Shown here: positions 11,070 through 58,783 of the stretch, one piece after another
Layout: each line of letters starts with the position of its first letter
Position numbering within the stretch: position 1 is the first letter of the stretch
Assembly: GCA_000442015.1 (NCBI GenBank)
Contig: KE560931.1
Coordinates: forward strand, 1 to 62,177
Source: Rozella allomycis CSF55
Taxonomy: Eukaryota
DNA: 62,177 nucleotides
Direction: 5' to 3'
The notes under the pieces: model-generated
The model's input: the letters and a program-made list of their open reading frames with translations, nothing else
What the model was told of the DNA's origin: nothing
The model's database searches: none
Translations under genes and position numbers: made by a program

Positions 11070-14000
11070 ATGGAGACGTCGGAACCAGTAACAGCGATGA
11101 CTTTGATATAACCACAGCGTCCTAATATTGATTCCAACAGCGCCGAGGCCATATCCAAGGTGGAAATAAAGCGGGAAGAGGATGTACCGAATGCCGTTGA
11201 GAAAATTGCGCAAGGCGGTGAGACGGATGCGTTTGCTGAAGTAAAAGAGGAGCCTGTCGATGTCAAAATTAAGATGGAAGAGAATGCAGAGGATGGAATG
11301 CAAGTTGAGAGTGAGGAGCGTGGGGAAATGAGCGTGGATACTGAGATGGCGAGTAATGAGGAGGAGCGTGGGTCTGAGCTGGATAGGGATGTGAAGAGCG
11401 AGAATATGGAGGTTGAGGAGGTTGAAGAAAAGAAGGTTGGTAAAAAGAAGACGCATGCCCAAAACAAGGTAGATGGAAACATATTTTGTAATGTAGGCTG
11501 AGGATGCGATGAAGAGGTATAGGTTTCTGCTTGGACAGACGGATATATTTAAGCATTTTATTGATCCAGAGAAATTGGGAATTGATATGAATGAGTTGAA
11601 TGTTAACAAGTAAGAATGGAGGGTGCTTTGGAGGTAGGAATAGAAAGAGGAAGACTGAAAAAGAGGAGGATAAAGAGCTGATGGATCAGGATGAGGACGG
11701 TGTTATAACTAATTTGCGAGAGTCGCCGAGATATGTGAAGGGAACGATGAGGGATTACCAGTTGCAGGGATTGAATTGGATGATATCGTTGTATGAGAAT
11801 GGAATTAATGGGATATTGGCTGATGAAATGGTAAGGAGTGGATGAAAGATAGAAAGGGACTTGGAAAGACGTTGCAGTCGATTTCCATGCTTGGCTATTT
11901 GAAGCATATGAGGGGTATCAGGGGCTCACATTTGGTGATTGTGCCTAAATCAACGTTGCAGAATTGGAAGAATGAATTTAACAAATGGGTTCCAGATTTT
12001 GATGCGTTTATATTTCATGGGAACCAGCAGGAGAGAGCAGAGTTGATTGGTGAGAGGATAAAGACGATGGATTTTGAGATTTGCATTACGAGTTTTGAGA
12101 TTTGTATTTTAGAAAAAAGTGCGTTGAAGAAAATAACGTGGGAGTATATTGTGATAGATGAAGCTCATAGAATAAAGAATGAGAATTCGTTGTTGTCGCA
12201 GATTGTTAGGTTGTTTGAGTGTAGGAATAGATTGCTGTTGACTGGAACTCCCTTGCAGAATAATTTGCATGAGTTGTGGGCCTTGTTGAATTTTCTGTTG
12301 CCGGATGTGTTTAAATCGGCAGAAGATTTTGATTTGTGGTTTGAGAAGCATGGGAATGATCAAGAGAAGATGGTTATTCAATTGAGAAAAGTAAAGAGAT
12401 GCAGTAGTGTTAATTGTTTAGATATTGGAGCCATTTTTGATGAGAAGATTGAAGGCTGATGTTGAACATAGTTTGTTACCAAAGAAGGAGGTGAATTTAT
12501 ATGTTGGAATGACTGAGATGCAAAAGAAATATTATCAAAAGTGTTTGGAAAAGGATATTGATGCAGTTAATGGAGGAATTACTGGGAAAAGACAGAATAA
12601 GAATAGATTGTTGAATATTGTGATGCAGCTGAGAAAGTGTTGTAACCATCCGTATTTGTTTGATGGAGCTGAGCCAGGCCCACCATATTCAACGGGAGAA
12701 CATTTGGTGTATAATTCAGGAAAGATGATTGTTTTGGATAAATTGTTGAAGAAGATGAGAGATAATGGATCAAGGGTTTTAATATTTAGTCAGATGAGTA
12801 GAGTGTTGGATATTTTAGAAGATTATTGCAACTACAGGGGTTATGAATGTTGTAGAATTGATGGACAAACACCGCATGAAGAAAGAATAGAAGCGATTGA
12901 AGAATACAACAAGCCAAACAGTTCAAAGTTTGTGTTTTTATTGACAACGAGAGCGGGAGGGTTAGGAATTAATTTAGCGACTGCAGATGTTGTTGTGTTG
13001 TATGATAGTGATTGGAATCCCCAGGCTGATTTGCAAGCGCAGGATAGAGCGCATAGAATTGGACAAACAAAGCAAGTTTATGTGTTTAGATTTATAACAG
13101 AGAATTCAATTGAAGAGAAAATAATTGAAAGAGCAATTCAAAAGTTGAGATTAGATCAGTTGGTTATTCAGAATGGGAAAAGAGATAATTTGAACCAAAA
13201 GTTGGGACAAGAAGATTTGTTGACAATGATTAGACATGGGGCGCAAGATGCGTTTATTGAAGGATCAACAGTTATTGATGAAGATATTGAAATAGTTTTA
13301 AACAAGGGAGAAGAAAAGACGAGAGAGTTGATGAAGAAGTATGAAACAGCTGGATTGGAAGATTTGCAAAAGTTTAATGTTGATAATTCATTTAATACGT
13401 ATGAATGGGATGGCAAAGATTTTTCTAAAAAGAAGAATAAAAGTTTATTTATTTTAGAAACAAGTAAAAGAGAAAGAAAAAGTAATTATGCGATTGATTC
13501 TTATTATCGCGATACACTTGGAATTCAAATAACAAGAGGGCCTTCTAGTAAAGCACCAAGAGCACCAAAACAGCCAGCTATTTATGATTATCAATTTTAT
13601 CCTTTAAGATTAATTGAATTATTTACTAAAGAGAATCTTTATTATAGGAAAAGTGTTGATTATAAAGTTGTTCAAAGGAAACCAGAAAAGAATGAAACAT
13701 TGGAGCAAGTTGAATTACAAGCGATTCAAGAACAAGAAAAGATTGATAATGCAGAACCATTGAATGAAGAAGAAGAAATTGAAAAAGATAAATTGATTCA
13801 TTTGGGTTATGGGAATTGGACAAGAAAAGACTTTCAACAATTCATTAAAGGCTGTGAAAAGTTTGGCAGAAATAATTTTGTTGAAATTGAAAAAGAAGTT
13901 GAAACAAAATCTTTAGATGAAATTAAAGATTATTCAAAAGTTTTCTGGTCTAGAATTACTGAATTATCAGATCACGAAAAGATTGTTTCTTCAATTGAAA

Positions 14001-14980: not shown

Positions 14981-16462
14981 ATGACAGTCAAATTGTCAAC
15001 AAAGCTCGGCATCTCAGACGTTGTGCTATCCGGCAAGCGCGTATTAATCCGGTAATCCACACAATTCGCATTCATAGTGTGGATTTCAATGTACCGCTCA
15101 AGGAGGGCAGAATTACAAACAACCAGAGAATAGTTGCTGCTCTGCCTACAATCCAGTATGCTCTCGATAAAGGTAATTGGATTTGTGCGTGTTAAGGCAG
15201 GTGCCAAGAGTGTTGTGTTGATGAGCCATTTGGGGAGACCCGATGGCAAGGTGGTGCCGTCGCAGAGTATGAAACCGGTGGCGGTGGAGCTCGAGTCGTT
15301 GTTGAATAGGAAAGTTACGTTTTTGGACGATTGTGTTGGGGAGTCGGTGGAAAAGGTTTGCAGAGACGCTTCCGGTGGTACGATTGTGTGTGCGTTTATT
15401 GATTACAGGGCAAGTGATACTCTTGGAAAATCTGAGATTCCATTTGGAAGAGGAAGGGTCAGTTAAGGATGAACAAGGCAACAAGGTAAATATGTAAATT
15501 ATCTCTACTTGAGCTTAAAGCCGAAAAGGCGGCGGTTGACGCTTTTAGAGCATCCTTGTCGAAATTGGGTGATGTGTACATCAACGATGCTTTCGGGACA
15601 GCACACAGAGCTCACAGCTCAATGGTCGGTGTTAATCTTCCTGTTCGGGCAGCTGGAATTCTCATGAAAAAGGAACTAGAATTCTTTGCAAGGGCTCTTG
15701 AAAATCCTGAAAGACCGTTTCTTGCGATTCTTGGAGGTGCTAAGGTGTCTGACAAGATTCAGTTGATTGAAAATCTTTTGGATAAAGTAAATTCAATGAT
15801 TATTGGTGGAGGCATGGCCTTTACTTTTAAGAAAGTTGCGCATGGAGTTAAAGTAACTTTTGAAGTGGTGTTTAAAAGATTGGAAATTCACTGTATGATG
15901 AAGAAGGNGGAAATTCACTTTATGATGAAGAAGGAAGCAAGTTGGTACAAAAGTTGTTGGATAAGGCCAAAAAGAATGGCGTGGAGTTATACTTTCCGGT
16001 TGATTACGTTACTGCAGATAAATTTGACAAGGATGCACAAGTAATTGATAATAATAGATATGATTAGACCGGATCGGCTACTGATGAATCTGGAATACCG
16101 GATGGTTGGATGGGATTAGATTGTGGACCAAAAAGCAATGAAATATTCAAACAAGCCGTTTCTAAAGCCAAAACCATTCTATGGAACGGGTAAGACAGGA
16201 ATGATATCAAAATAGGCCTGCCGGAGTATTCGAGTTTGACAAATTTTCAAGTGGCACAAAATCTATCTTGGACGCTGTTGTGTCCGCCACTAAAGCAGGT
16301 GCAGTTTCAATAGTCGGCGGAGGTGATACCGCAACGGCAGTCGCCAAATGGAAAATGGAAGATAAACTTAACCATGTGAGCACTGGTGGTGGCGCCTCGC
16401 TTGAATTACTCGAAGGAAAAGATTTGCCCGGAGTTGTCGCTCTGTCTGATCGTAGTCAATAA
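14981..16462 (+). CDS. PGK1: Phosphoglycerate kinase (spliced; assembly N at 15908)
   Basis: [64 protein letters not shown]. Confidence 0.97.
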
Positions 16463-28643: not shown

Positions 28644-31600
28644 ATGAACGTTGAAGAGTGGCAACGTCTTTTAGGCACAGGCAAGTGTATATAATAATAT
28701 GAATGCAGGCGACATATCAAGCTGTGTGAATTATTTAACGGATATCCGAGCGAGCGTGGATTCGCTTATCGAGTCGCCCGACTTTGTGTTGAATTTCCAG
28801 AGCGTGCTCCAATCATATTTTGCGCAGAGTGTTCCTGTATTTATTGACAATTATGAAAATGTAAAAAATTGGGTGTGCTTTAATAGAAATTGAGGCATTT
28901 GATGTTGGAGATTATGAACCATTTGCCGTGTAATGAGAGTGTGAAGCAGAATGTTGGGGCGCTGGCTGGATTGTGTATGGGGGTGATTGAGAATGATAAT
29001 GAGGAGAATGCGTTGGTTGCGTTGCGTGTGTTTGTTGATTTTCAGAGGAATTTTAGGCCGTTGATGGAGGATAGGGTGCAGCCGTTTTTGGATTTTGTGA
29101 TTGCGTTGTATGATCGGCTGCCTGAGCTGGTGAATGAGGCGTTTGAGGTATGTGGTGTAGTTGGTTGAAATGTAGCAGGCGGATGGACTGGGGATGGTTA
29201 CACCGCCACCTGTTGAAGAGGATGCGATTGTGACTGGAAAAAGTTTGATAAAGAGCAGGAATAGTTTTAAAGTGTTGACAGAGTGCCCGATTATTATTGT
29301 GATATTGTTCCAGCTGCATAGAAAGTTTGTGAATCCTAATATCCAAAAGTTTGTTGAAATGATTGTAAAGGCGTTGAGAATCCAAGTGTCGGCGCAAGTT
29401 GAAGCGCAAAACTTGGCTAATAAGAAGGGAAAGTTGTTTTCTGGGGTGAGTTTGGCTATAAAGAATCGAGGATTGTTTACTGATTTGATATCAGCACAGA
29501 TCAAGACAATGTCTTTTTTAGCGTATATTTTGCGTAGTTTTGCATCTGTGTTGAAGCCACACCAGAATGCGATACCAACTTTTATAATTCAATTGTTGCA
29601 AAATTGTCCACCTGAGGCTAGTGGGATAAGAAAGGAGTTGCTCGTTGCATTGAGACATATTTTGAGTACAGAGTTTAGACAATCGTTTATTCCACATTTG
29701 AAGATACTTTTAGATTCTAATATATTGATAGGTACTGGGAACGCATCGTATGAAACGTTGAGACCGTTGGCGTATAGTTTGTTGGCTGATTTCATTCATC
29801 ATGTGAGATTGGAGTTACCTTTACCATTTCTAGTGTTGACCATATCAGTTTATACAAAGAACTTGCATGATTCTACGATTAGTGGGAATATTCAAACCAT
29901 GTCAGCAAAGTTGTTGGTTAATCTAGTTGATTGTATTGTGAGTGATACGTTTCCAGTCGAGCAAAAGAGACCATTGCTAATAAAGATACTTTCTACGTTT
30001 GTTGATAAATTTACAAGTTTGAAGGAAGGATTGGAATTTTCCAAGAAGAATTTGAATAAGAAAGTTGAAGATGAAGGAATGATTAAGATTAGTCAAGGTG
30101 TTAGTGAGAATGTGAATGAGCCTTTTAGAGAAAACAAGTTTTTATTGAGGACGCTTGTTAGTGGGATGAAGAATATACTGTATGGACTGAAGGGCTGTAA
30201 TCCAGGATCGCCGCAGCAGTCGGGATTGCATGTGAGAGGGTTTTCAGCAGAGGAAAGTGATTTATTTATGAGATTGTTTGTTGATGGAATTGAGTGTTTT
30301 GATATGTATGCGATGACTAGACCAAATGAGAAGAGTGAAGGGAAGCCAACACCTGAAGGGTTTCCCAAGGGATTACCGCATTCAACGATTCCATCTGAAG
30401 AGAAGGAGTTGATGGATCAGTTTGCATTGTCATTTACAGTTATAGATCCAGCGTTGTTTTGTGATGTGTTGACTAGTTGTTTTGAGTACTTTATTGAAAA
30501 GGTTCAGTCGAATGTAGCATTGTTAACAATTCCGCAGTATTTTCTGACTGTTGGGCATAATCCATTTCCGAGTATTCTTTTGAGATATTTGATGAATAAT
30601 TTGGAAGAGATTGGAAAGAAGGATGAATTGAAACCGCAGATCTTGTTGAGACTATTCAAGTTGGTGTTTATGTCTGTGAATGCATTTGCAGAGGAGAATG
30701 AAGGTATATTGCGGCCGCATATATCTGATATAATAACTAATTGTTTGAAGATGTATAGGACAGCTGAAGAGCCTTTGAATTATTTTATCTTGTTGAGATC
30801 GTTGTTTAGAAGTATAGGTGGTGGCAAATATGAAGCGTTGTACAAGGAAGTGTTACCGTTGCTTCCATTGTTGTTGGAGACGTTTAATATGTTGATTGAG
30901 ACTAGTGAGAGGAAATCGTATAAAGAGTTGTTTGTAGAGTTGTGTTTGACGGTGCCTGTTAGATTGAGTGTGTTGTTGCCGTATTTGTCGTTGATGATGA
31001 GACCGCTGGTGACTGCCTTGAAGTCTAATAGTGAGTTGGTTAGTCAGGGGTTGAGAACGCTGGAGTTGTGTATTGATAATTTGACGCAAGTAAGATTGAA
31101 TTGTTTTATTGAAAAGGAATTTCTGGATCCAATATTAGCGCCCGTGTCTGAAGAGTTGATGTCAGCGTTGTGGTGTCATTTGAAGCCGTTGCCGTATAAT
31201 TCAGCGCATGCGAGTGCGACTGTTAGAATATTTGGTAAATTGGGTGGACGAAATAGAAGATTGTTTAAGAATAACACTAATTTGAGTGTGGGGAATGTTC
31301 AAGTTGGAATTGAGATGACGTTGAATGAGAGTTTGAAATTGCCTATGGATGAATTGATTAATGTGAGTTTTAATGTGTTGAAGGGAGAAGAAGAGATATT
31401 TTACAAGAGACATGCGTTTAATGTAGTAAAGGAAGGGGTTATGGGAGTGATGAATGAAGTGTGCCAAGGTGAAGATGATGACAAGATTGGGTTGGATTTG
31501 ATGGTTGAAAAGTATTTGAATAAAGATTTGAAAAGAGAGATAAAGAGTAGATTGGAGAATTTAAAGCAGGAGAGTAGGAATAAGAAGAAGAATGTTGTAG

Positions 31601-34600
31601 AGAGTAGAATAGAGCAAGTTTTGAAGGGAGAGATTGTAAAGAATGAGAATACGAGTTTGAAAAAGGAATCAAAGATGAAGAGTTTGGAGTTGATGATGAA
31701 GAGTTTATTTTATTGTTCAAAGATTGAAGAGTTAAAGGAAGAGGCTGTTGAGTGTTTGAAGAATGTGTATAAGATTTATGGGATATTGAAAGTGAGAGAG
31801 TATTTGGAGATTAGAGAATTTAATTTGAATTTGAATAGTGAAATTAAAGATATTGAAATATTGAATTGTTTAAATGAAATTTTGGTTGAAATTTTATCAA
31901 ATGAAAATTCAGAAATTGTGGAAACAGGAAAACAAGTTTTAATTTTGTTTTATGAGATTATTATTGATTTGTTTGAAAAGAATTATGAGATTATTGGAAA
32001 TTTGAGTATATTTTATCAAATAGCGAGTAGTTTTTGTACATTTTGTTATAAGAGTTTGAATGAAAAGAGAGGAGGATGTAGAGGATTGAAGTTGATTGTT
32101 TCAGAGATGTATTTTGGAAATAAATGGATTTGGATGCATGAAATGAAGTTTACGAGAGCATTGTTGTATATTTTGAAGGATGATGTACCTGATTTTAGTC
32201 GTGGGTTGATTAAAGAAGCGAAAGAGACGTTGAAGATGATATTTAAAGTTGGTAGATATCAGGGTGAAGATAAGGAGCTAAAAGAAGGTGGTTTGAATGA
32301 TAGTGTTAATGCAGAGAGAAAAACTTATTTTAATCAATTGATTTGCTTGTTGGTTGCTGAATTGTCTAATAGTAATGAACAAGTGAGAGAAACTATTAAA
32401 GAATCAGTTGAATATTTATCAGAATTGTATTCAATTTCAATAACAGAAATGTTTGTTCCAGTTAAAGATAGATTGTTGATGCCAATATTTGCTAAACCAT
32501 TGAGAGCATTACCATTTCCCATTCAAATAGGATACATAGAAGCAGTTAATTATTGTATGAAATTGAAACCAAGTTTATTGAATTGGAATGAAGAATTGTT
32601 GAGATTAATTCATGAAGCATTGGCATTAGCAGATGCAGAAGATCATGCTCTTGTATCAAAATCAAATCAACCAAAATCAGCTACTTTATTAACTAAATTA
32701 AGAGTTTCATGTTTATTATTGTTATCTTGTTCATTAGAATATGAAGAAATGCAACATCAAAAACAATTGGCTACTAGAAACAGAATTATTTCAATCTTTT
32801 TTAAATCTCTTTATGCAAGATCTGGTGAAATTGTTTTAGTAGCAAAGAATGGTCTTGGTTCTATTCTGGGTGGAAACAATCATAAAATACCAAAAGATTT
32901 ACTTCAAGTTGGGTTAAGACCTGTTTTAATGAATCTAAGTGATCACAAGAGATTAACAGTTCAAGGTTAACAAATATTATTTAATTAATTTGTAGGATTG
33001 GAAGGGTTAGCTAGATTGTTGGAATTATTGACGAGTTATTTCAAGGTAGAAATTGGAAAGAAATTGTTGGAACATTTAAACCAATGGGCAGATCCAAATG
33101 TATTAGAAGAAGCATCAAAGAAATCACTGCAAGATTCCCAAGAGATTAAAATAATCTCATCAATTCTCAATATATTCCACTTGTTGCCACCCACTGCTAA
33201 TATATTCATGGACAATCTAGTTATAATTACAGTTAAGCTAGAAACAATGTTGAAGAGAAGCAATAATAGTCCATTTAGAGATTCATTGATATGGTTTCTG
33301 CAGAGGTATGCGACTGAAGCGATTGACTATTTTCTGGAGAGGATAAAGAATAATCCTATTAGCAGATGTTTTGTGCAGCTGTTGGAGAATGAAAAGGCTG
33401 AAAAGCTGAGATTAGAGTTGAGAGAGAGTGCGCCAAAGTTTATGAGAGCTTTGAGTAATTTGTTGGAGAGGGAGGTTATCAATGGAATTCAAATCATTCA
33501 TGTAATGTTAAGGTAACGAATAATTTTAAATCTTCAATAGGTAAACAGAGTTAATAGCCTGACAATAGGTATTATGGGAATTGGCTGTCAGAGTTTCCTC
33601 AATTACTGAATTGGCTACAAGCATATTTTGATTCTATTTGTTCAAATGAAGGATTGAATGAGAATTTAATGTACTCACTGCGAGACACAACATCACCAAT
33701 GTTAATGTTGAGATCCTTGATAATCCATTCCAGAAACAATTTTAACATTAAACTGTTTTATTCAATGTTCAGAATAGTAGATTGCAATCCAACGCTATTC
33801 GACCAAACAATTTTAATCAATTTCATCTCTGAAATGATTCCATTAAATTATAAAGAAATGTTGAATGAATTTTGGACATTCTTTGTTGATCCAATAGTGT
33901 CTAATAACCAAAAGTTGTTTGTGTTGAAGTGGATGTTGATTCCTACTATAAAGAGGTACAAGATTGATGCAGAGTTTTTGGAAAAGTTTAAAGAGTGTGT
34001 GTGGAATGGCACGATGGTGTATCAGTTTGGTGAAATTGTGTTGTTGAATGTTATTGAAGCGACGTGTATTCTGCTGTATTGTGTACCTGAAGAGCTGAGT
34101 GAGTATAAGAAGGATATTGGAAAGTTTGTATTTAGTCTACTAGGTAATTTAAATATAACATTGTAATGATTAGGTAAAGAAATAGTTTAAACTTAAAAGG
34201 TGTGGATGATCCATTTACAAAGCAGGCTGCGTTTGTTGCCGCTTCATACTACATTAAAAACTTTGAAACACCAATTAAGCTAGTTCTACAAATAATAAAT
34301 TTAATGTTGAAAGCATCGCCCACAGAGACGAGGCATTTAATTAGACAGTCGCTGAATGTATTATTGTCTAGTCAGAATATCAGTGATTTGATTAAAGTGT
34401 TCCAGAGTGCGGTGATAGAAGAGGCGCATTTACCGCAGACGCTGATGATGGTGTGGCAGGTGTTGGTGTCGTTTCCAGATGCGTTTTATGAGTTTAGGAG
34501 TTATTTTATTCCGTGTATTGTGAATTCGCTGAGTAGGATTGGGTTGACTGTGTCTAATTCTGTTGATTCGAAGATGTTGACTGTTGAGTTGGTTGCTGTT

Positions 34601-37600
34601 ATTTATTCGTGGTTAGATGGAGGTGAGAGAGGTGAGAGAGGTGAAAAGGGAGTGGAGAAGAGAGATGAGAAGGGAGTGGAGAAGAGAGTGGATGCTCAAA
34701 TGAATATAGATCAAATGGATGTAGATCAAGAGTTTGAATTGAATTTGAATACTATAAATTTAATTGTTAATTATTTAGTTAAATTGAGTTTGAATGTGAA
34801 TAAAGCAGAGCTATTTGACAAATGCTGTTTGCTAGTAGGCAAGTTTATAAAAAAGTATCCCTCAGTGACCATTCAAATAAACAATTTTGAAAAGATATTT
34901 GTGAATGCAGAATTAACGATAGAAAGTACATCAACGTTGTGTGATGCATTGAAACTGATTGAGACTATATTGAAGGTTGATGAGTTTGATTCTGTTAGAT
35001 TTGTTTCTAGTCTTGATAAATGTTTTGAGAGATTGTTTTCTATTGATTATTTGAAAGTTAATGAAAGTGTTTTGCCTATTTTTGAAATGTTGATTGAAAG
35101 GAATATTATTAGTGAGAGAGTTGAAGAGAGGGAGGCATTGAATGAAGTTGAAATGAACACCAGTGCAAGTGCAGACGTTGTAACTGCATCACCCACTACT
35201 ACTACCACCAACCAGTCTAGTTTGAATGGTTTGATAAGTTTGTCTCATGATAATGTGATACAGCAGAGAAATTTGAATATAACATTGACATTTTTATCAA
35301 TATATTACAAGAATAAGCAAATGAATGAACAATTGTTGATTGCATTGTTGAGAATATTGATGATTTGTTCAAGAGACTTGCAACAGATAATAAATTGTAA
35401 TAAAACAGAATCAAATATAAATTTAATAAATATAGCATCAACACCCAATCTAACAAATGGAAATAATAATAGTAATAGTGTTAAATCTAGTATAACTTCA
35501 ATTCCAAGTGTAATGTTGACTATTAATACGTTGATTCTGTTGATTAATTTATGTTCTGATTGTATTCATTTATCATTTGAACACAAAAGGTAATCTAGTT
35601 TAAACTATTTTGAATAGAAATTATTTTGTTTCAATTTCAAGTATAGCAGAAAAGAGTAATGATAAATTATTATTAAAGAATATTTTTGAATTGATTAAGA
35701 GTTGGATTGTTAAATCAGAGAGTCCAACCATTAAAGAAAAGGCTCAATTAATGTTACGATTATTATGTCTAGAAAAAGATAAAGAATTATTTAAAGAATA
35801 TTTATTGCTAGTTTATGAAATCTACAAGAATCCAATCTATTCGAAATCAGAGTTGACTGTGAGATTGGAGCCTGCGTTTGTTTTTGGGTTGAAGAATGAT
35901 AATTATGAAATTAGAAATTTGTTTTTTGATTTGTTTGATGCTTCTATTCCTAATAGTTTGAATGTTAAATTAAAGTATATTCTGTCGTGTCAGAATTGGA
36001 GTTATTTTAAGGATTATTTTTATTTGAATCAGATATTCAATCTATTACTGCGAGTATATTCAAGTACTACTAGTTCAAATTCCACTTCTACTAGTTCAAA
36101 TCATTCAACTTCTACTAGTTCAAAACATTCAACTTCAACTTCTTCTCCTTCAATCTTTCAGTCAATTGAAAATTTATTGTTTTGTGATAAAAATTCAACT
36201 TGCTTTTATTTTACTGAATTATTTAAACTAATTTATTCAAAAATGAATGAAAATGAAAAGATTGAATTGAAATCTCTTCTTGTAACATTTCTATCTAAAG
36301 AATATCACATCAAATCACAATCATTAAGACCAAATGTTATTCAATGTTTCATGAATGCCATTTCTCAACTAGACCCTATCATTCCAATCTCTTGTCATCT
36401 TGTTAAATATTTAGCCAAAACTTTTAATTGTTGGTATTCAAGTATTATCTATCTAGAGAAATGTTTATCCAGTAGCAGTAGTTTTAATACTGATGATTCT
36501 AATACTAAAAATAATTCTTCAATGATAACTGATGTTCTATCTTCTCTTTACAACACTCTATCAGAAAACGACATGTTCTATGGCTTATGGCGAAGAAGAT
36601 CCATCTACACTGAAACAAACGTAGCGTTATCCTTTGAGCAATTCGGCATGTGGAAGCAAGCCCAAGAAATGTACGAAAGCGTCCAAAACAAAGCACGAGC
36701 GGGACATTTGCAGTTCACTGAATCCGAATACTATTTATGGGAGGAGCGTTGGATTGACTGTACCAGGAAACTGCAGCAGTGGGAGCTGTTGAACGAGCTG
36801 GGCAAGCATGAGAATAACTCTGATTTGTTGCTGGATGCGCATTGGCATAACTCTGATTGGATTCAAGACAAAGAGTTGATACTGCCGCTGGTTAAACAGT
36901 GCAAGAATAACCAGAAGAGAGTCTATGATGCGTTTCTTAATTTGTTGGCGATACAGGAGGGTAATGATAAGGGCATTGAATTTCAGCGTCAATATGAGAA
37001 TGGTAAGCAGATGGTATTTGAGTTATAATAGGTAATTAGTTCAGTTTAAAATGATTATAGGTAAGCAAATGTTAATGTTATTATTATAGGTATTCAAACT
37101 TGCTTGATTAAATGGCATTCTTTTCCAAATATTATCTCTTCTTGCCATATTCCACTACTAGTTGAATTTCAACAATGGTTAGAATTAAATGAAGCATTCG
37201 AAATTTATCAAAACTTTAATTCCAACAATAAACAACAAATGATTCAAAATGTCAAAGGTAAACTTATTAAATCGTTTTATAGTTAAAAGGTGCATTGTCT
37301 ACTTGGAGAGATAGGTTACCGAATATTTGGGACGATATTTCAATCTGGAGTGATCTAGTGGCTTGGAGACAACACGTGTATAATTCCATAAACAAGGTAT
37401 TCCAACCATTTGCATCAGAGCCCAATGCGGCACAGAATGCATCGTTTGCGTTTAGAGGATATCATGAAATTGCATGGATTATTAATAGGTTTGCGCATGT
37501 GGCGAGAAAGCATCAGTTGAATGAAGTTTGTGTTGGTTCTTTGAACAAAATTTACACGTTGCCTAATATTGAGATTCAAGTATTAGTTAATTTATATATG

Positions 37601-40305
37601 GATAGGATGCGTTTTTAAAGTTGAGGGAGCAGACAAAGTGTTTTTTGACGAGTCCTGAAGATTTGCCGACTGGATTGAGAATTATTAATGATACGAATCT
37701 AGGTAATTCTAATGTAGGAATAATCATTTAAGGGTATTTTGCTAATCCACAGAAAGCTGAGTTCTTTACATTGAAAGGGATATTCTTGTCTAAAATGAAT
37801 ATTCACGATGAAGCCAACAAAGTAATTCCAATTTTGAATATCTAATAAAGGTGTTTCAACAAGCTGTTCATATTGATATGAATTTGCCAGTTGGTTGGGC
37901 AGCATGGGGTCACTTCAACGATCAAAGGTACCATCATTAATCCTTTCCTCCAAATATAGATTCCAAGCAACAAAGGACATTGCATTCTGTGCCAACGCCG
38001 TCAACTGTTACCTCCAAGCAGCGAACATTTACCGAAACTACCGTTCCAAAAAGTATCTCGGGCGGTCACTTTGGCTGCTGTCAATAGACGATTCAACTGG
38101 CTCAACGATGAAGAGTTTCGAGCTGCACAGCAATGATATTCCTGCGTGGCAGTGGATCCATTTTATTCCGCAGTTGCTGAATTCTTTGGCCAGAAAGGAG
38201 GCAAAGCAGGTGAGGTGTTTTTTGTTGGTTGAGTAGGTGAGGACTATATTGTTGAAGATTGCGAAAACGTTTCCGCAGGCTGTTTATTTTAATTTGAGGA
38301 CTATTAATGAAGAGTTTTTGCAGTTGAAGGATGAAGAGGTTGGTGGGAGTGAAGGTGATGATGGAAAGGAGTGTGTTGGGAATACAGGGAATACTGGGAA
38401 TAATGGGAAAGATAATACAGTGAATAATGGTGCTACTAGTTCTAATACTTCTACAACTATGTCAGCTAATAATAATCTTTCAATATCTACTTCTACCACG
38501 TTGAATGCTACTCCAGCTACACCAGTTATTGAAGGATTGAATATTCAACCAACATCAATATTAATGCAGAATCCAATACCAACAACACCAATAACAAATA
38601 ACAATGAAACAAGAAAGAAACATCCATGGGAATTAACAGAAGAATTAATGGCAGTTATAAAGACTGGATATTCATTACTAGCGCTTTCAATGGAATCAAT
38701 GGTTGATCATATAATGCAAAGATTGAGGGCAACACCAGATGAAGATTTCTACAGAATAATTATTACCTTGCTATTTGAAAGTTATCAAGTAAATAATCTA
38801 ATTAAGATTGATGAATAGCAATTTAATGCAAAGATTGAAACAAATTTGATTGAAAATAGTTTAATTAAAGTTAGTGAAATGATTTCATCCAGTCAACATC
38901 CAAATCATCATTTCAAGAAAGAATTTGATCAAGATTTTATAAAGAATAGTCCAAATTTGATTCAAACTATTGATAAGTTATTAGAATGGAAGTTTAAATT
39001 GGAACCTTTAATAAAGAAACTGCCAAAAGTTTTGCATTTGGAGAACTTTAGTAGATATCTAGTAGAATTTGAACATCAGAAATACGATGATGTTGAAGTG
39101 CCTGGCCAATATTTACTTGATTTTGAATCTAATAATGAATTCATTAAAATAAAAAGATTTGAACCTCAAATTGATATAATAAAGAGACATGGAACTTGTT
39201 TAAGAAGAATTTACATTAGAGGCCACGACGGTTCTTTATCGCCTTTTGTTATTCAAAATCCAGCTGCTAGGCATTCAAGAAGAGAAGAAAGAGTTTTGCA
39301 ATTGTTTAGAATGTTTAATCAATTAATTCAAAGAAGAAAAGAAACTAGGCAACGCAATTTATCTTTTAATATGCCCTTGATCATTCCTCTATCTATCCAT
39401 GGGAGAATAGTTCAAGATGATCCATTCAATGTTTCTCTTTCTGATATCTACAATTCACACTGTGATTCTATTTCTATTAACCCTGATGATCCTCTAATCT
39501 TTTACAGAAACCAAATCAACCAATTCAATCTTTCTAAATCTTCTCCTGAATTGCTCAACGTCAAATTAGATTTATTCGACAAGATCCAAGCGTTCATCCC
39601 TGACAATATTCTTTCAAACTATTTCATTAATTCTTGTGCCACATTTGATGATTTCTGGATTCTCAGAAAACAATTCACGCTCAATTATGCAACGTTGACT
39701 TTTATCACTTACATTATGAGCATTGGCCATAGATTTCCTTTTAAGATTTTCATTTCAAGAAAAACTGGCAATGTTACATTCTCTGATCTTGTTCCTGGTA
39801 ACTATACATTTCTCCTGTAATCTTAGCGTTGAATGCTGTTGGCCAATTCACTTTAACTGAGCCTGTTCCATTCAGACTCTCTCCAAACATCCAAACATTC
39901 ATCACAACAATCGGCCTCGAAGGCGTCTTTTCATCAGCACTAGTGTCCATCGCCCGCTCCCTATCCGAGCCGCAGGTAACACAACTCTCCAATCCAACCT
40001 AGTTTGAAATGGAAGACTACTTATCGCTGTTCATGCGCGACGAGCTGTACGCATGGTACCTGTCCGCACAAAAGAACACGCACGAGGCGATTGTCATCCC
40101 TGAAAACGAGTTTAAGAGCAGAGTTGCGCAGAATGTCGAGCTGGTTCTAAAGAGGACGCAGACTTTGGCGTGTGTAAAGGAGAGGGAGACGCCTATTGCT
40201 CACCAGACTGTGCCTGTGAACCAGACTATTATTGATCTCGTGTCGTGTGCTGTTAATCCGCAGAAATTGTGTCAGATGGATATGCATTGGCATCCTTGGT
40301 TATAA
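28644..40305 (+). CDS. TRA1: TRA1/TRRAP PIKK pseudokinase (SAGA/NuA4 scaffold), multi-exon; first intron 28681-28708 is GC-AG
   Basis: [40 protein letters not shown] domain, [23 protein letters not shown] ending WHPWL. Confidence 0.96.
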
Positions 40306-49025: not shown

Positions 49026-50812
49026 ATGTTTTACTCTACAGATATTTTGTCGATGGGCAAGCAAGAGGGATTAACAACCATTTGGTAATAAGTATGTGAA
49101 TATACAACAGGCTTGCCGCCACCATAGGACCACGCTCACAAACCAAGAAACTCTCTAAAAAGGATCTGATAGGCGTTAATGTTGTCAATGCATGGTATTA
49201 TAACATTAAATGTATTATAGCGACTACTTGATTCATTTGCAGCAACCGGTAGCATTACGTTTAACAAGTTCCATGATGGTTGGTGTTTCCAGAGTCTATC
49301 AGCAGCAATACAATTTTTATTATAGTAAAGATATATGATTTGATGGAATAGATGACGTGCAGTCTATGTGGATGAAAGTTAAGCAGCACTCTATTGCAAC
49401 CAATACTGTTAATATTAATCTTGGAGCGAATCCAGTGTAAAACATAGTAATTAAGCTTATCTAGTGCGGATGTTATACCGATGGATGATTCGTTCATTCA
49501 AATGTGGAAGACATCAAATGAAGGTGATCGTATAGTCAATGATGTTTTGAATTGGGAGGCACATGTTCCATCGATTTCTCCAGAAGCACAAAGAAGACAT
49601 ATTGATCATGCAGTTCCTTCATCTACGGGTGTTTCAACACCAGTTAAGCCATTTAGAATGGAAACTCCTTCTATGAGTACTTTAAGTGGAGTACCAATGC
49701 CGTTTTCAAATGATTCATTTGATTGGGAGTAAATATTTGATCTCTTTTGTAATTAGAATGGATGAACTACAAATTGGTGGCTTGGAAGAACCTTTGAATA
49801 TATTTGACTTTCAAACTTTGGAGAAGGAAGAAAAGAAGGGAAAAAATTTGCTGTTCGAAGGGCTTGGTGACATTGATATGAAATGGGATGAAGATCAAAT
49901 CCCATCAATGAAAGCTGAAGTGCCAGAAGTGACCAACAAAAAGAAGAAACCACAAAAAAAGAAAAGAATTGACGAAGATGAAGAAACGCAATTGACAATG
50001 AGAAATTTAGCTGAAAACCAAGACAATTATCTCGCAAACATGAAGGCCAATTCGATACAAAGAAAGAAAATAAAGTTTTTAGAAAAAGAAAAGTACAATG
50101 TTCTTTTTCAGAGTCACGTTTTGAAAGATTTTTCTGTAGATTTACAAAATCTATGGAATTCAGAAATGTTAAGCAAGGGTGTTAAGGTTCATGAGATTCA
50201 GGATCCATTAATTATGGAAACTCCCAAGAGAAAAAAGAGAAAAGAAGAAATTGAAATTCAAGAAGATCAAAATTATGATCAAGTAGGATTTGACGAAACA
50301 ATTGAAATGGGAAGATTTGAAGAGGATTATTCAAATTCAAACCCAGTTGAAACTCCCTGGTTCTCTGATCGACATTCAAGTATTGCAACAAAATCTCTTT
50401 TACCTCCAAGCGTCAAAACTGAATCGTAATTAAATCTAACCAACTTTATAATAGAGTTAGGAACAGCGTCATTTCTTCAACCTCAAGGGCTCCTTCTTCT
50501 ATTCTAGATAAATACATTGCTGAGAATTCATTTTCTAACCTTGAATTGCCCAATGAATCCGAGAACTTTTTAGTGTAATAATTCATTAAAGTTGAAAAAT
50601 AGATTTGTAAAACAAAAATGTGATTTATATGGTAAAACTAAATTCATTGATATTTTGCCGTTAAAAGAAACATCCAAGACTGTTGCGGCTCTTGCTTTTT
50701 ATAAAGTCCTTGGTAAACCTTGCTTGGTTAATTAATTCTAGAACTTTCATCTAAGAATGTTATCAAGGCAAAAAATGTACACAATGACATTGAAATAACA
50801 CTTAACAAATAA
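49026..50812 (+). CDS. REC8: Rad21/Rec8 kleisin, Rec8-like (spliced)
   Basis: MFYSTDIL...TIWLAATIG...KKLSKKD...VNAC...ALRLTSSMMVGVSRVYQQQY; C-terminal winged helix AALAFYKVLEL. Confidence 0.75.
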
Positions 50813-52160: not shown

Positions 52161-53464
52161 CTAATATTTATTCACATAAACAACATTGGGCTTTGAGAAT
52201 CCATTAAAGGTTGATGATGAAGCAAGTGTATACGCGCCCATGTCTTCAAAGATAAGAAAGTCACCAACTTCAAGTAATGGAAGTTTCGTCTTTTTAACAA
52301 GGCAATCCATTGAATCACAAGTTGGGCCCCATAAACTACATTCCAGAATTTCCGTGGATTCATGTCGTTGGAAAACAATTGGTTCTATTTCTACATGATC
52401 AAATATAAGGCAATTAAAAGATCCATACACCCCATCATTAAGATAATACATTGCGCGTCTTTCTGTTTCAGCGGTTGCGTCTATTATTCTTCTTGATGTC
52501 ACCTGCACAACCAACGTGTAAGCGCCCGCCACATAAAACCTTCCTGGCTCCGAAATGATTTTGATATCTTCCCCAAACAATCTATCAATTGAAGATCTGC
52601 AAACTTCTGCAATCTTTTTAAAGAACTCTGTTGACGTCTTTAAACCCGGGAAACCACCGCCGATATCGAGCAGCTTGAATTTATAGCCACAAACATTCTC
52701 CGCCATATCAAAAAGGTTTCTTGCACTTTGGATAGCTTTTTGATACGACTGAATATCACCACAGTTGCTGCCAACATGGAAACTAATTTATAAACTTCTC
52801 TGCTTGTTACCTTATACCTACGACGTTAAGATCCATGCTCTTTGCTTTCATGATAAGTTTCTCCGCTCTTTCCATGGAAGCACCAAATTTCAGACCGAGC
52901 TGACATTTAGACTTGGAATCATCTGTTAAAATGCGTAAAACGAGTTCAGCTTCCGGAAAGTGCTTTTGGACCTTGACCAATTCGTCTTCATTATCAAATG
53001 TCATGACATTTATTCCCTTTTCCTTTGCATATGTAATCGACGACCCTTGCTTGCATGGATTAGCGTATATAATGCGACTTGCATCTACTCCAAGGCTCAG
53101 CACAAGGTCGATTTCCGCTCTGCTCGCGCAATCGAAATTGGCACCCAACGCTGCTAATTTTTCGATAACTCGGGCATCCGGATTGCATTTAACAGCTAAT
53201 ATCACATTAGCAAATATGAATACCATAATACGGATGCACACGGGGCATCTCGCTTTTCCACAACATATGCTGGCTCTCGACGACATCTAAATCGGCGACA
53301 AAGAACGGTTCATCATTATTTAATAGTTCATGATTAATTAAAGTTTGCATAGCAGCTTTGGACAGCGATGTTGGTGAGTATGATGATTCGGTGGTTTCCA
53401 GGGGTACAAATGGATTAGAGCATAATTTCTCATGGACGGGCACAATAATTTGAGTGGAAGACAT
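52161..53464 (-). CDS. SPE1: Ornithine decarboxylase (3 exons)
   Basis: PYYAVKCNPD, FDCAS, YANPCK, FHVGS, LDIGGGFPG, SEPGRF, WGPTCDSMD, MGAYT. Confidence 0.95.
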
Positions 53465-53555
53465 GAGGTGATTCCCTTTGGCGAGATTTATTTATAATGG
53501 TGTGTGACACGCGTTCTATTTTTTGACGGGGAGTGTAGGAAAAATAGGAAAATTC

Positions 53556-53891
53556 ATGAAAGTTAAAATTAACAGTAAAAATAGGTTGGAGTGGTGATAG
53601 GGTAAGATGGGTTTGTGAAGTTGTACTAGTTGGAAGACTGCTGCGATTTGGAAGTGGAATGTGGAGGACGATGTTTGTGGGATTTGCAGAGCGCCGTTTG
53701 AAGGGTGCTGCCCTGAATGCAAAATTCCTGGGGATGACTGTTCGCTGAGTAAAATGGTTGTGGTTTACTTTATAGTTTGGGGAGCTTGCAAGCACTGTTT
53801 TCATTTGCATTGCCTGATGACCTGGCTGCAGTCGCAGAATGAGAAGCAGCAGTGTCCAATGTGCCGACAGGAGTGGCAATGCCTGAGTTGA
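53556..53891 (+). CDS. APC11: Anaphase-promoting complex RING-H2 subunit APC11 (probable 1-nt exon at 53601)
   Basis: MKVKI...W...[28 protein letters not shown]...CKHCFHLHC...CPMCRQEW. Confidence 0.93.
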
Positions 53892-53969
53892 GCAAGTAGA
53901 ATTTTGAATTTAAATAAAATATTTTTGTAGTTTGTACTTTGGAATGTTTTATGAGTGGCTGTGTTAAGA

Positions 53970-56583
53970 ATGGAAGAGAGTATCCCTGTTAAGCATGTTG
54001 TAAAAATATATTTTGCTGTTTGAAAGGCGCCCGAGGACGTACCGTATGAAGAAGAGTTGGTGAGAAACCCGTTTTATGTCAAGGGCTGGCTGCGCTATAT
54101 CCAGCACAAGCGCGAGTATTCGTACGAGGCCCAGTGTTACGTGTATGAGAGGGCGCTGTTGCATCTTCCGCGCAGTTATAAAATATGGAAGCAGTATTTG
54201 AACCTTCGAACGACGAGGGTGCAGACCAAGTGGATATTGGATCGGGAATATGAGGTTATTAATATGTGTTTTGAGCGAGCTCTGATGCATTTGAATAAAA
54301 TGCCGAGGATATGGCTTGACTATGTGGAGTTTCTGATCAAGCAGAGGAAGGTGACGTTAACGAGACGGGTGTTGGATAGAGCGTTGAGAGCGCTGCCTGT
54401 GACGCAGCATGAGAGAATATGGAAGGTGTATTTGCAGTTTGTTGTGAGAATTAATTTGCCAGAGCTTTCTGTGAGGGTGTATAGGAGATATTTGCAGGTA
54501 CGTGGAGATTGATGGATATAGCGTAGTTGTTTCCAGAAAAGACGGAAGAATATATAAAGTATTTGAGAGAGAATGAGTGTTATGATTTGTGTGCGCAGAA
54601 GATAGTGGATGTGATTAATAATGAGAATTTTGTGAGTGTTGAAGGGAAAACGCATTATATGTTTTGGGTTGAGTTGTGTGAAATGATTTGTGAGCATCCC
54701 AAGGAAATGAAGGGGATTAAAGTGGATGCAATATTGAGGAGTGGAATACAAAGATTTCAAGACCAGAGGGGTAAATTGTGGACATCATTGGCTGATTATT
54801 ATATTTACATGGGACAATTTGACAAGGCCAGAGATGTGTATGAAGAAGGGATCCACACTGTGATGACAGTGAGAGATTTTACTCAAATCTTTGAAGCGTA
54901 TACAAAGTTTGAAGAGACGTTGTTGAGTGGGATGATGGAGAAGGTTGGAGAGGAAGAGATAGATTTGAGATTGGGATATTTTGAGAGATTGATGAAAAGA
55001 AGATCAATTTTGTTGAATGATGTGATGTTGAGACAAAATCCGAATAATGTGCATGAATGGCTAAAGAGGACAGATTTGTTTAAAGAGAATGAAAGAATGT
55101 TAATTGAAACATTTGAAAATGCAGTGAGAACTGTGAATTCTAAACAAGCGGTAGGAAAATACAGTGAACTGTGGATTGAATATGCGTTGTACTTTGAAAG
55201 AAAGGGGGATATTGAAGAAGCGAGTAGAGTGTATGAAAGGGCGATAGAAGAAGAATATAAAACAGTGAATAGTTTAGCAGAAGTTTGGATTTCATATTCA
55301 AATTTGTTTAAAGATAAAAGAAGGTCAATTGAAATAATGGCAAGGGCTGTTAGACCAACAAAGGGATACAAAGTTGATTATCATGATGAAGTAACCATAG
55401 AATGTTTTATTTAGTAGATGATTGAACCAAAGCATAGATTATTCAAGTGTTTAAAGCTGTGGAATCATTATGTAGATTTAGAAGAAGCGTTTGGAACATT
55501 TGAGACTACTAGGGCTGTTTATGAGAGAATTTTAGATTTGAAAATAGCGAATTTGCAAACAATAATAAATTATGGATTATTTTTAGAAACAAATGAACAT
55601 TTTGAAGAATCATTTAAGATTTATGAAAGAGGAATTGATTTGTTTGGATATCCAATGGCATTTGAAATTTGGAATATTTATTTAGCTAAATTCATTAAAA
55701 GATATTCAGGAACAAAATTAGAAAGAGCAAGAGATTTATTTGAACAAGCGTTGGATAAATGTCCTCCAAAATATTCTAAAAATATTTATTTAATGTATGC
55801 TAAATTAGAAGAAGATTTTGGTATTATTAGACATGCTTTAAGAATCTATGATAGAGCAACTAAAAATGTTGCTAAAGAAGATAAATTACAAATCTTTAAA
55901 GTTTACATTACAAAAATTGCTCAATCTTACGGTTTAACTTTTACGAGAGAAATTTATGAAAAAGCTATTCAAAATTTAAATGATTCTGACGCTAAAATTA
56001 TTTGTTTAGAATACGCTGAAATGGAAAAGAAATTAGGTGAAATTGATCGTGCAAGAGCCCTCTATTCTTACGCTGCTCAATTCTGTGATCCAAAAGTAAA
56101 GAAATTATTTCTTTTATAATAGACAAACCCTGAATTTTGGAATGTTTGGAATGATTTTGAAGTTAAACATGGAAATGAAGACACTTTTAGAGAAATGTTA
56201 AGAGTTAAAAGAAGCGTTCAAGCTTTATTCAACACTCAAGTAATAATTTTATTTCTCTTTTCATTAAAGTTGGAATCTATCGCTGCTCAACACGTCAAAG
56301 AAGCAAAAGATGCTATGGAGTCTCTTGAAATTAACGTTGATGAAGAAACTAACCAAATTGATAATCAAACTGCTGATGATCAAATTGAATCAATTGATAA
56401 CGTTGAGATTCAAAACAATGAAATTGATGACCAAGAAGAGTATCTCATTTCTTCCATTCTAATTTTAGATTAAACGATAAAGTAGAAATTGAAGCGTTGC
56501 CTGAACAAGTCTTGAAAGTTGTTGCCACCGAAGAAGAAGAACAAATAGTAATCGGCGCTAAAGCTCGCTTCATGAAAAAATAA
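53970..56583 (+). CDS. SYF1: Pre-mRNA splicing factor SYF1/XAB2 (HAT repeats), spliced
   Basis: [62 protein letters not shown]. Confidence 0.95.
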
Positions 56584-56624: not shown

Positions 56625-58783
56625 ATGTCTTTCATGCAAAAGGAATTATCAGACTTGATTTCCTTTTACTCTGACTGGATCTCCCAAAACAACAACCTCA
56701 AAAATGAAACATCTTTCATCATCCTCAATCATCTAGTTAATGACCTGCATTTACTAGCTGCCAAAGTTAAAGCCACTAAATCAGTACTCTTCTAAAATTC
56801 TTCCCAAAGGATTCCACAATGAAAAAATCTCTTTCAAATCTCACTACTCTCTTCTCCTCCTACAAAGATTCAGACACAGAATCTCCAAAGAAATCTTCAG
56901 ATTCTCACGACCATCACAGAAACAATGTTTTCAAATTCTTCTCTGCAAAATCCAGAGGTAATTACTCCACATATTTACAATAGATTCAGAACACAACGTC
57001 ACACGCTCATACTCGGATCCATCCGTTTCCTCGTACAACTCTTACAAAGACACTACTGAGAAATACACCCAATCTTCAACTTCCAATTCTCCACTCAAAG
57101 AAATCGAAACAGTTTCTAATAGCGCTGATTCTGACAATGCGCAAAAAGACTTTGCATTGACTGAAATGAAGAAGCATTTCGCCGGTATCAAAGAGAATAT
57201 CCATAAACAGTCAAACTCTGTTTCTTCCCAAGAAGATATCTTTCTCAAAGGTATAGTAATGGACTTTATCGGCAACGTAGAATTTTCTCAGAATAATTCT
57301 ATTGTTAGGAAACCGTCTAAATCGGCGGAAAAGAGGAAACCTTTGAAATGGTTTGTCAGAGAATTCAACAAGAATCCTTCAAAGGTAACAATTCGCATGT
57401 TTTATTAATTCAGGTACCCAGACTTTGTTAATGTGATATATAGGTTCAAAAATTCATTAGGAAATAACAATAGGCTATTAACAGTCTGGTCGAAGAAAAG
57501 TATCTAGAGTTGGATCCTCAATCAGTGTCATCCTTTCTTCATACAGAAAAGCGTTTAAATAAGAAGAAAATAGGTGAATATCTAGGCGAACAGTAAATTT
57601 CAATGGTACATATTATAGCGACCCATTCAATCTCAATGTCTTGAAAGCATTCGTCGGTGACTTCAATTTTCAGGGTCTAGATTTTGACGTCGCATTACGG
57701 TAATCATCTCTATATTCAATTGTAGGAAACTTTTATCTGAATTCAGATTGCCCGGGGAGGCTCAGAAGATTGACAGAGTTGTCAACACATTCGCCGCACG
57801 GTACTGTGAAAACAACCCTACAGTTTTTGAATCACCAGGTACTCAATTCCAACAAATAACATTAGACACCGCCTATGTCCTTGCATTTTCGCTAATCATG
57901 CTGAACACAGATGCGCACAATCCTAACGTCAAACACAAGATGACACTCAGAGAATTTATCAGAAACAACAGAGGTACTACTATTAACAAGTTACAATAGG
58001 CATTAATCACCAAAAAGACTTGCCCGAAGAGTTTTTGAAAAAGATGTTTTGCAATATCACCGAAAACGAAATTAAAATGGACTCGATAGATGACGAGCAA
58101 CAGAAAATGGAGAGCTTGATGGCTACGCTAGTGGCGAAACCGGATGTATGATTATATATGGGTTTTCAAAAGGATTTGAGCTCGCCGGATAGATGTCTCA
58201 TTCAGCAATTCAATGTTGGGATGCTGACTGAAGTTGATACTGAGCCTGTTGAGCATTCTCGCGTGTTGTATCTTTTCAATGATTTAATTTTGGTAATCAA
58301 TTTGGGTTTAACGTATTAGATTACTAAAGCCATAAAGAATGGGCGCAAATTTCAAGTAAAATCAAAATACTGCATTGGCAATGATACGTGTGTTGAAAAT
58401 ATCTCATTAAATGGTAATGCATAGCCCATGTTTTTTATAGATCATCCGTATTCCGTTAGGTTATTTTCAAACACGTCGGATAAAACAAACTCTTTCATTT
58501 TTGATTTCAAGATACAAAATAACAGGAAACTGTTTTTTGATTCCATAAAGGAAATTCTCGCTGAAATGAAAGGCGAGATTTACGAGGCTAGCGGTAAAGA
58601 CTTCAGGTGATAGTGTTTAGATGACGATTTCAATGATCATACTCTTACAAAGGCCGCCGCTGCAAAAGCTATTCTTGAGCAAACATATGCGGCAGATGAA
58701 GGGAATAGATATAAGAAATTCGGATCGTTGAGAGAAGCAAGGACAAAATTACATGCCAGGTTTATTCCTGTAAAGGATCCATG
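56625..58783 (+). CDS. Sec7-domain ARF guanine nucleotide exchange factor with PH-like domain (multi-exon; ends approximate)
   Basis: [58 protein letters not shown]. Confidence 0.88.

Follow-up and report, generated by a model that had tools for sequence, protein, structure and literature searches.

Can a single nucleotide serve as a complete exon? The question arises at the 5' end of the APC11 gene of Rozella allomycis CSF55, located at positions 53556–53891 (plus strand) of contig KE560931.1 (GenBank assembly GCA_000442015.1), whose 62,177 nucleotides (nt) make up the stretch of DNA analyzed here, hereafter called the window. The start codon (ATG, 53556–53558, +) opens a 19-nt exon 1 (53556–53574, +) that contains the start codon, codons 2–6, and base 1 (A) of codon 7, encodes the conserved M-K-V-K-I start of the protein, and ends in AAC A. 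It is followed by a proposed 26-nt intron 1 (53575–53600, +; GTAAAA...GATAG; phase 1 in codon 7), a lone G at 53601 (+), a 28-nt intron 2 (53602–53629, +; GTAAGA...ACTAG; phase 2 in codon 7), and the sequence T TGG, which begins exon 3 at 53630. Base 53601 has an acceptor AG immediately before it and a donor GT immediately after it, and the two neighboring introns are complete, of the GTA..TAG type, and normal-sized; the G itself, as base 2 of codon 7, would complete the split codon A|G|T (Ser). These positions and letters had been put forward in an earlier reading made from the DNA letters alone (hereafter, the sequence-only reading), and they are borne out when the sequence is read directly.

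The reading frame at this site makes the lone G matter. Exon 3 (53630–53748, +; 119 nt, i.e., base 3 of codon 7, codons 8–46, and base 1 of codon 47) must be joined to some upstream exon, because its conserved frame (TGG at 53631) is shut upstream by a TGA at 53616–53618 with no intervening ATG. The frame of the ATG at 53556, if read without splicing, runs into a TGA after 13 codons. Removal of the entire 53575–53629 segment as one 55-nt intron shifts the frame, just as the sequence-only reading had it, and leads to a stop after 45 codons. The G at 53601 is required for the conserved frame, and with the G included the product is 84 amino acids (aa) long.

Judged by its predicted product, the gene is APC11. 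The translation of exon 3 matches the Pfam family zf-ANAPC11 with 47.3 bits (profile positions 1–27) and that of exon 4 (53776–53891, +; stop codon TGA at 53889–53891) with 54 bits (profile positions 29–63), the cut-off being 25 bits, and zf-rbx1 gives the weaker match to both (27.4 and 39.4 bits, respectively). The two profile segments are contiguous across exons 3 and 4, which validates the 27-nt intron 3 between them (53749–53775, +; GTAAAA...TTATAG; phase 1 in codon 47). Human APC11 chains are the best PDB matches of the Rozella product, with a gapless alignment between exon 3 and residues 8–46 of human APC11 (PDB: 4ui9_B, 84 aa); all RING-H2 ligand positions are aligned, and the rest of the gene is intact. 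R. allomycis uses the standard genetic code, and a deposited protein of strain CSF55 shows 100% identity to the exon 3 translation.

We enumerated every one- or two-intron GT..AG solution that joins any ATG in 53400–53640 in frame to exon 3 (introns of at least 15 nt and exons of at least 1 nt; n = 133) and scored the predicted N termini with a hidden Markov model (HMM) built from 38 unique N termini taken from 68 metagenome loci. Since these training N termini are encoded contiguously in the DNA, the training set carries no annotation bias. The model with the 1-nt exon ranks first of the 133 (88.2 bits), ahead of the second-best model (82.4 bits) and of a model with a single 45-nt intron (rank 3, 82.0 bits), and the highest ranks go to models in which exon 1 (53556–53574) is retained. 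The family also has a characteristic spacing: Met1 and the WxW motif lie 13 residues apart in every one of the 68 metagenome loci whose MK start is contiguous (the other 12 of 80 loci have no WxW motif or no contiguous MK start), and this spacing is kept only by the 1-nt-exon model, with its 84-aa product. Top rank, product length, and preserved family spacing all support the sequence-only reading on its central point, and we consider it probable, at roughly 80%, that the G at 53601 is a real 1-nt exon of Rozella APC11, with codon 7 split as A|G|T.

The splice sites themselves give a mixed picture. The donor of intron 1 scores 7.4, inside the range of 20 reference introns (donors 1.9–8.4), and intron 2 has a donor score of 5.9 and an acceptor score of 4.9. 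Several other observations weigh against the 1-nt exon. The acceptor of intron 1 scores only 1.3, below all 20 reference introns (range 1.9–8.7), and the mean splice-site score of the 1-nt-exon model, 9.7, is slightly bettered by the 10.5 of a competing model with a 17-nt exon. No RNA run was listed as containing this stretch, and one R. allomycis RNA run, when compared with the window, yielded only chance pieces of 19–33 nt, none of them on APC11, and no joints on this gene. The predicted mRNA of the 1-nt-exon model carries the junction AACAGTTGG, but the same junction would result from a 54-nt intron with non-canonical ends, so cDNA alone cannot separate these two models, whose mRNAs are identical. 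Two GTA..TAG units of 22–32 nt placed 1 nt apart, counted on both strands, are expected 0.31 times per window and occur at least once in 49 of 200 dinucleotide-preserving shuffles. The length spectrum of GTA..TAG units has only a modest excess at 26–28 nt (33, 28, and 30 units, versus ∼9–28 at other lengths), and the 20 reference introns were preselected in a 25–31-nt band and hence are no proof of a length limit. Finally, the plant exon phases with which Rozella is compared below come from protein models, not from plant DNA.

Because the 1-nt-gap pattern is not rare by chance, the argument for a 1-nt exon rests on its position and on the fit to the protein family rather than on the pattern alone: for a pair on the right strand and within the 73 nt that separate the conserved exon from the conserved start, simple arithmetic gives a chance expectation of order 1e-4. 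A relaxed scan of the window returned a second 1-nt-gap pair at 49408–49464 (+), which is a false positive and useful as a control: what looks like its first unit is ordinary coding sequence, and the 28-nt intron at 49437–49464 suffices. Two further ideas about the APC11 pair were rejected. A recent tandem duplication as the origin of introns 1 and 2 is not indicated by their similarity, which is equaled by 22.6% of 190 background intron pairs, and no nested intron with a split donor or acceptor ([D1,2]-type), as in a so-called stwintron, fits the sequence.

How unusual would a longer intron be in this genome? Introns in Rozella seem to be confined to ∼26–31 nt, a class that includes intron 1, and an intron of 45 or 55 nt would seem atypical. 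Mapping of the deposited protein P0003 gives introns of 27, 29, 27, 27, 30, and 29 nt in the neighboring gene SYF1, together with a doubtful one of 18 nt, and introns of 30 and 28 nt in the Tra1 gene are validated by the continuity of the Tra1_ring profile. A gene finder run without a length prior places 17 of 29 introns at 26–31 nt in the 15 genes that it scored highest (scores of 60 or more; one of the 17 is the gene finder's own guess in the APC11 5' region). Those of its long "introns" that we inspected were artefacts, namely gene fusions, intergenic skips, and unresolved tandem mini-introns. Intron censuses based on open-frame or coding-score filters were too noisy for use. Rozella introns have been described as short, ∼30 nt (PMC6349667), with a density of ∼2.5 introns per kb of coding sequence (PMC8476143); in the searchable text of the Paramicrosporidium genome paper (PMC5701793), the word "intron" does not appear.

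Within the window, intervening sequences longer than this class are found in the Tra1/TRRAP gene (29176–39817), where they are composed of mini-introns. Three such sequences, all on the plus strand, measure 56 nt (33513–33568; 28 + 28), 56 nt (34144–34199; 30 + 26), and 87 nt (37003–37089; 29 + 29 + 29). GTA...AG ends are present in every unit, and neighboring units abut at AG|GT such that the tiling is exact. Both 56-nt intervals are removed whole, with the Tra1_ring profile passing from position 737 to 745 in one case and from 952 to 955 in the other. Abutting GTA..TAG pairs occur three times in the window versus an expected 0.32, a count reached in none of 200 shuffles, and among the checked intervening sequences longer than 31 nt (a small sample), none is untiled. 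Unusual similarity, within the top 0.5% of 190 background pairs, is confined to units 1 and 3 of the 87-nt set. Rozella may thus remove its longer intervening sequences as chains of ∼28-nt units. Another candidate abutting pair, of 29 + 30 nt, lies at 57385–57443 (+); whichever splice sites are chosen, the frame there ends after a few codons, and the pair may simply sit at or past a gene end.

Five alternatives to the 1-nt exon were weighed against these data. The one that survives best, and which we still regard as improbable, is the arrangement that tops the 133 solutions in mean splice-site score (10.5; donor 3.7, acceptor 6.6), in which a 6-nt exon 1 is followed by a 23-nt intron at 53562–53584 (GTTAAA..AATAG), a 17-nt exon at 53585–53601, and intron 2. 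It retains the conserved phase-2 intron, but its protein would lack the conserved Lys4-Ile5 and would have Trp at position 9, breaking the spacing of 13 residues that all 68 loci share, and it falls to HMM rank 13 of 133 (78.2 versus 88.2 bits). In addition, a 23-nt intron would be shorter than every intron length that we checked, and the in-frame capacity of 53562–53573 to encode V-K-I-N would have to be a coincidence.

The single 45-nt intron at 53585–53629, which the sequence-only reading had offered as its alternative, exists as described and would place three extra residues ahead of Trp8. In favor of this solution are the single intron required and the third-best HMM score; however, its donor (GTTGGAG) has a score of −1.4, lower than that of any of the 20 reference donors (1.9–8.4), its length lies outside the checked 27–30 nt in a genome where every longer intervening sequence that was checked proved to be tiled by mini-introns, and it breaks the invariant Met1-WxW spacing. 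We consider it very improbable, as we do the idea that the gene is damaged, or carries a 1-nt assembly error, and has no functional 5' splice solution at all. What can be cited for damage is that the contig has two N positions elsewhere and that RNA support for APC11 splicing was not obtained; against it stand the intact remainder of the gene, with every RING-H2 ligand position aligned, and the existence of an exact 84-aa solution with consensus signals.

Highly improbable, in our estimate, is the removal of 54 nt as a single intron whose ends would be non-canonical (TA..AG from 53576, or GT..TA to 53628), with no separate exon. Its product is identical to that of the 1-nt-exon model, and the metagenome contig L004 does have a single phase-2 intron in codon 7 behind a 20-nt exon 1. 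Yet such an intron needs non-GT or non-AG ends and a length outside the local class, and it leaves unexplained why two complete consensus mini-introns fill the space exactly. Equally improbable are the deposited annotation (start at 53432, a 117-nt intron plus intron 2, and fusion to SYF1; HMM rank 72 of 133, 74.4 bits), which has its deposition to recommend it but begins with an exon that overlaps the start of an opposite-strand ornithine decarboxylase gene, bypasses the APC11 stop codon, and, in conflict with the Pfam profile, leaves the 27-nt intron 3 in place, and a 30-nt GTG..AAG intron at 53591–53620, which is the pick of the naive gene finder and ranks 105 of 133 (72.9 bits).

If the 1-nt exon is real, how might it be spliced? 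One-base exons are an extreme test of splice-site recognition, because no exon definition is possible. We envisage that the two mini-introns of APC11 would be removed by intron definition and, since two spliceosomes cannot occupy sites that are 1 nt apart, one after the other. Either order would leave a usable site, ...AACAG|GTAAGA if intron 1 goes first or ...GATAG|GTTGG if intron 2 does. A tight upper limit on the length of Rozella introns would disfavor the 55-nt skip and so help to keep the single base, and the abutting introns of Tra1 would suggest that the same machinery routinely handles neighbors with no exon between them. The Rozella spliceosome may act only on units of ∼26–31 nt and take out longer intervening sequences as a series of adjoining mini-introns, which would make a 1-nt (or 0-nt) exon workable. 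With intron, exon, and intron inside 55 nt, the locus, if real, would be the most compact known system for sequential splicing.

A 1-nt exon is already established in the same gene of land plants. Arabidopsis APC11 (At3g05870) contains a constitutive 1-nt exon, proven by cDNA and by base substitution according to the main text of Guo and Liu (2015; PMC4674806), so the sequence-only reading was correct in pointing to such an exon. The same text describes the microexon as an A located 333 nt into a 422-nt interval and attributes the former annotation of 87 rather than 84 residues to 10 intron bases appended to exon 1. In the main text of Yu et al. (PMC8831610), the APC11 microexon is reported as conserved across land plants and as lost, together with all introns, in most monocots, and its origin is placed in early plants. 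Neither main text (PMC4674806, PMC8831610) states the codon position of the plant microexon, which we derived instead from database proteins.

Among 159 plant-like APC11 models, 34 have canonical and 125 aberrant N termini. Residue 7 is Gln in 30 of the 34 canonical models, and every one of the 125 aberrant models diverges directly before Trp8. Seventeen plant models run on past the conserved start; their codon for residue 7 is C-initial in 16 cases, and eight have Arg at this residue, followed in five of the eight by Ile. A C-initial residue 7 and the Arg-Ile pair are what read-through of the donor (C|GT-AT) would yield, which excludes phases 0 and 2 for the end of plant exon 1. On the other side of the gap, an xxG codon is possible for the residue preceding Trp8 in 122 of the 125 aberrant models, and this residue is Arg in 57, as expected if AG|G is read through the acceptor. 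In intronless grass-like loci, codon 7 is CAG (8 of 8). From the phases of the protein models, the CAG of the grass-like loci, and the A of the Arabidopsis microexon, we infer a C|A|G split of plant codon 7, with 19 nt in exon 1, a single-nucleotide exon at base 2, and an exon 3 that begins at base 3.

Under the 1-nt-exon model, the Rozella codon 7, A|G|T, has the same position, the same phases, and the same exon lengths (19, 1, and 119 nt) as this predicted plant arrangement. A second intron position points the same way. Rozella intron 3 (CTG A|gt...ag|TT TGG) interrupts codon 47 in phase 1, after the DDCPL motif, and in 33 of 34 plant models the residue at which the sequence first diverges past DDCPL has an A-initial codon, with Ser at this residue in 18; Ser is the expectation of A|GT read-through, so the phase-1 intron in codon 47 would be common to plants and Rozella. 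A|GT follows DDCPL in 33 of 68 fungal-like loci as well. The sequence-only reading had conjectured that the plant and Rozella positions might be homologous. Its conjecture agrees with the plant protein models in both position and phase, and the support this provides is indirect, since the plant phases are themselves deduced from such models. On this basis, we infer orthology between the Rozella arrangement and the 1-nt exon of APC11 in land plants.

The two cases share more than their probable position: they lie in the same family, each has one base between AG and GT that is needed for the frame, and both have caused the same failure of automatic annotation. They differ in the base (A in Arabidopsis, G in Rozella) and in the flanking introns, which total hundreds of nt in land plants as opposed to 26 and 28 nt in Rozella. 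They also differ in how they are known, the plant exon through cDNA and substitution and the proposed Rozella exon through its genomic sequence. The new element is the apparent positional identity of a 1-nt exon across kingdoms. If real, this would be the first reported one-base exon of APC11 outside plants, apparently at the identical nucleotide; among the literature matches listed, we found no published report of a 1-nt exon in Rozella or in any non-plant APC11.

What do other lineages have at codon 7? In the fungal-like metagenome contig L004 (143–260, 355–444), a 20-nt exon 1 is followed by a 76-nt phase-2 intron in codon 7 and, further on, by a phase-1 intron in codon 47. In the animal-like L056 (400–425), the acceptor reads ...cag|G TGG, and the conserved exon starts at base 3 of codon 7. 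The metagenome scan produced no second genomic example of a 1-nt exon, and the 80 loci kept in it are biased toward a contiguous first exon. Database models of non-plant APC11 (n = 93) comprise 52 canonical and 41 aberrant ones. The residue before position 8 in the aberrant models is Ser in 13, Arg in 11, Gly in 10, Asp in 3, Lys in 2, and Glu and Ala in 1 each, so that 39 of the 41 have an AGN or GNN codon, as expected from read-through of an acceptor located 1 or 2 nt before TGG; ∼24 indicate a phase-2 intron and 15 a phase-1 intron. Judging from these models and loci, phase-1 and phase-2 introns in codon 7 seem to be widespread singly.

Some individual entries deserve mention. Two models, the animal P0036 (Nematostella vectensis, "LOW QUALITY PROTEIN") and the zoopagomycete P0020 (Syncephalis plumigaleata, partial), diverge from the family immediately ahead of Trp8, with loss of the conserved start, and the low-quality flag of P0036 might reflect a base that the pipeline could not place. 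Gly precedes Trp8 in P0113 (metagenome, 58 aa), P0008–P0011, and P0033; P0113 resembles the in-frame read-through of a 21-nt phase-1 intron in codon 7 in an organism with tiny introns, which suggests that phase-1-only lineages exist. Six metagenome loci (L054, L057, L058, L066, L078, and L080) have L-K-V in place of M-K-V at the start, with a frame that stays open upstream for 64–94 codons; an N-terminal extension, a fusion, or a start codon in another exon may account for this.

In a broader interpretation, Rozella (Holomycota) and land plants have orthologous 19 + 1 + 119-nt exons in APC11, the one-base exon predates the split of the two lineages and goes back to near the last eukaryotic common ancestor, and the Rozella spliceosome is in addition limited to units of ∼26–31 nt. 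We advance this tentatively, rating its chances at somewhat below even. Lineages with only the phase-1 or only the phase-2 intron in codon 7 would then be differential losses. If true, the APC11 microexons would be the smallest and among the oldest exons known, and the published early-plant origin of the microexon would be contradicted. If the Rozella exon is real, the date of origin becomes a testable question of intron-position evolution across eukaryotes.

One-base exons in print, as given in the parts of the sources available, include those of plant APC11 and VPS55, one in Fusarium CYP621A (PMC12940212), and 13 in Coprinopsis cinerea (PMC12230235). The Fusarium exon has the same local AG|G|GT motif as Rozella APC11, and both the Fusarium and the Coprinopsis cases, like that of Rozella, fall within the fungal kingdom in the broad sense. 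They concern different genes, however, with introns of ordinary fungal size (a 139-nt interval in Fusarium graminearum), they have transcript-read support (the Coprinopsis set comes from long-read annotation), and the available parts of the two papers claim no positional match across kingdoms.

Stepwise removal of adjacent intron segments is described, in the portion of PMC8605326 that was available, for the ratchet points of Drosophila, where AG and GT are juxtaposed in "zero-nucleotide exons." By analogy, a ratchet-like stepwise removal is likely for the 1-nt exon of Rozella and for the abutting mini-introns of Tra1; the scale is very different, as recursive splicing in Drosophila subdivides introns of many kb and the Rozella units measure 26–30 nt in intervals of 55–87 nt. 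The introns of Paramecium and Nyctotherus, at ∼25 nt (PMC5014332), resemble those of Rozella in forming a narrow class, close to the shortest length that a spliceosome can handle, with GTA..TAG ends. Rozella differs from these ciliates in its standard code, and tandem or 1-nt-spaced introns were not found described for such genomes in the papers searched. Fungal stwintrons (PMC5587772, PMC9024468), as presented in the accessible parts of those papers, likewise involve consecutive splicing within one small interval and have been linked to 1-nt shifts of intron position. They differ from the APC11 pair in that an inner intron interrupts the splice signal of an outer one, whereas the Rozella introns are complete and lie side by side.

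The deposited gene model for the APC11 locus is wrong in its start, in its retained intron, and in its fusion to SYF1. APC11 lies between an ornithine/arginine decarboxylase gene, which is located upstream on the opposite strand with its start at 53464, and the gene for the splicing factor SYF1 downstream. The deposited protein P0003 (916 aa, "TPR-like protein"; window positions 53432–56583, +) fuses APC11 to SYF1 by bypassing the APC11 stop codon with a 72-nt "intron." It begins at 53432, within the start region of the decarboxylase gene, has a first intron of 117 nt (53468–53584), shares intron 2 with the 1-nt-exon model, and keeps the 27-nt intron 3 in frame, contrary to the Pfam profile. 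Misannotation of the site before Trp8 affects 125 of the 159 plant-like models and 41 of the 93 non-plant ones, and annotation pipelines might treat this site as a known trap.

Two minor features of the contig complete the description. Single N positions are found at 15908 and 61782. The GC skew is strongly positive (up to 0.55) at 30001–36000, on the coding strand of Tra1, and at 12001–14000, in another gene, as compared with a window mean of ∼0.05.

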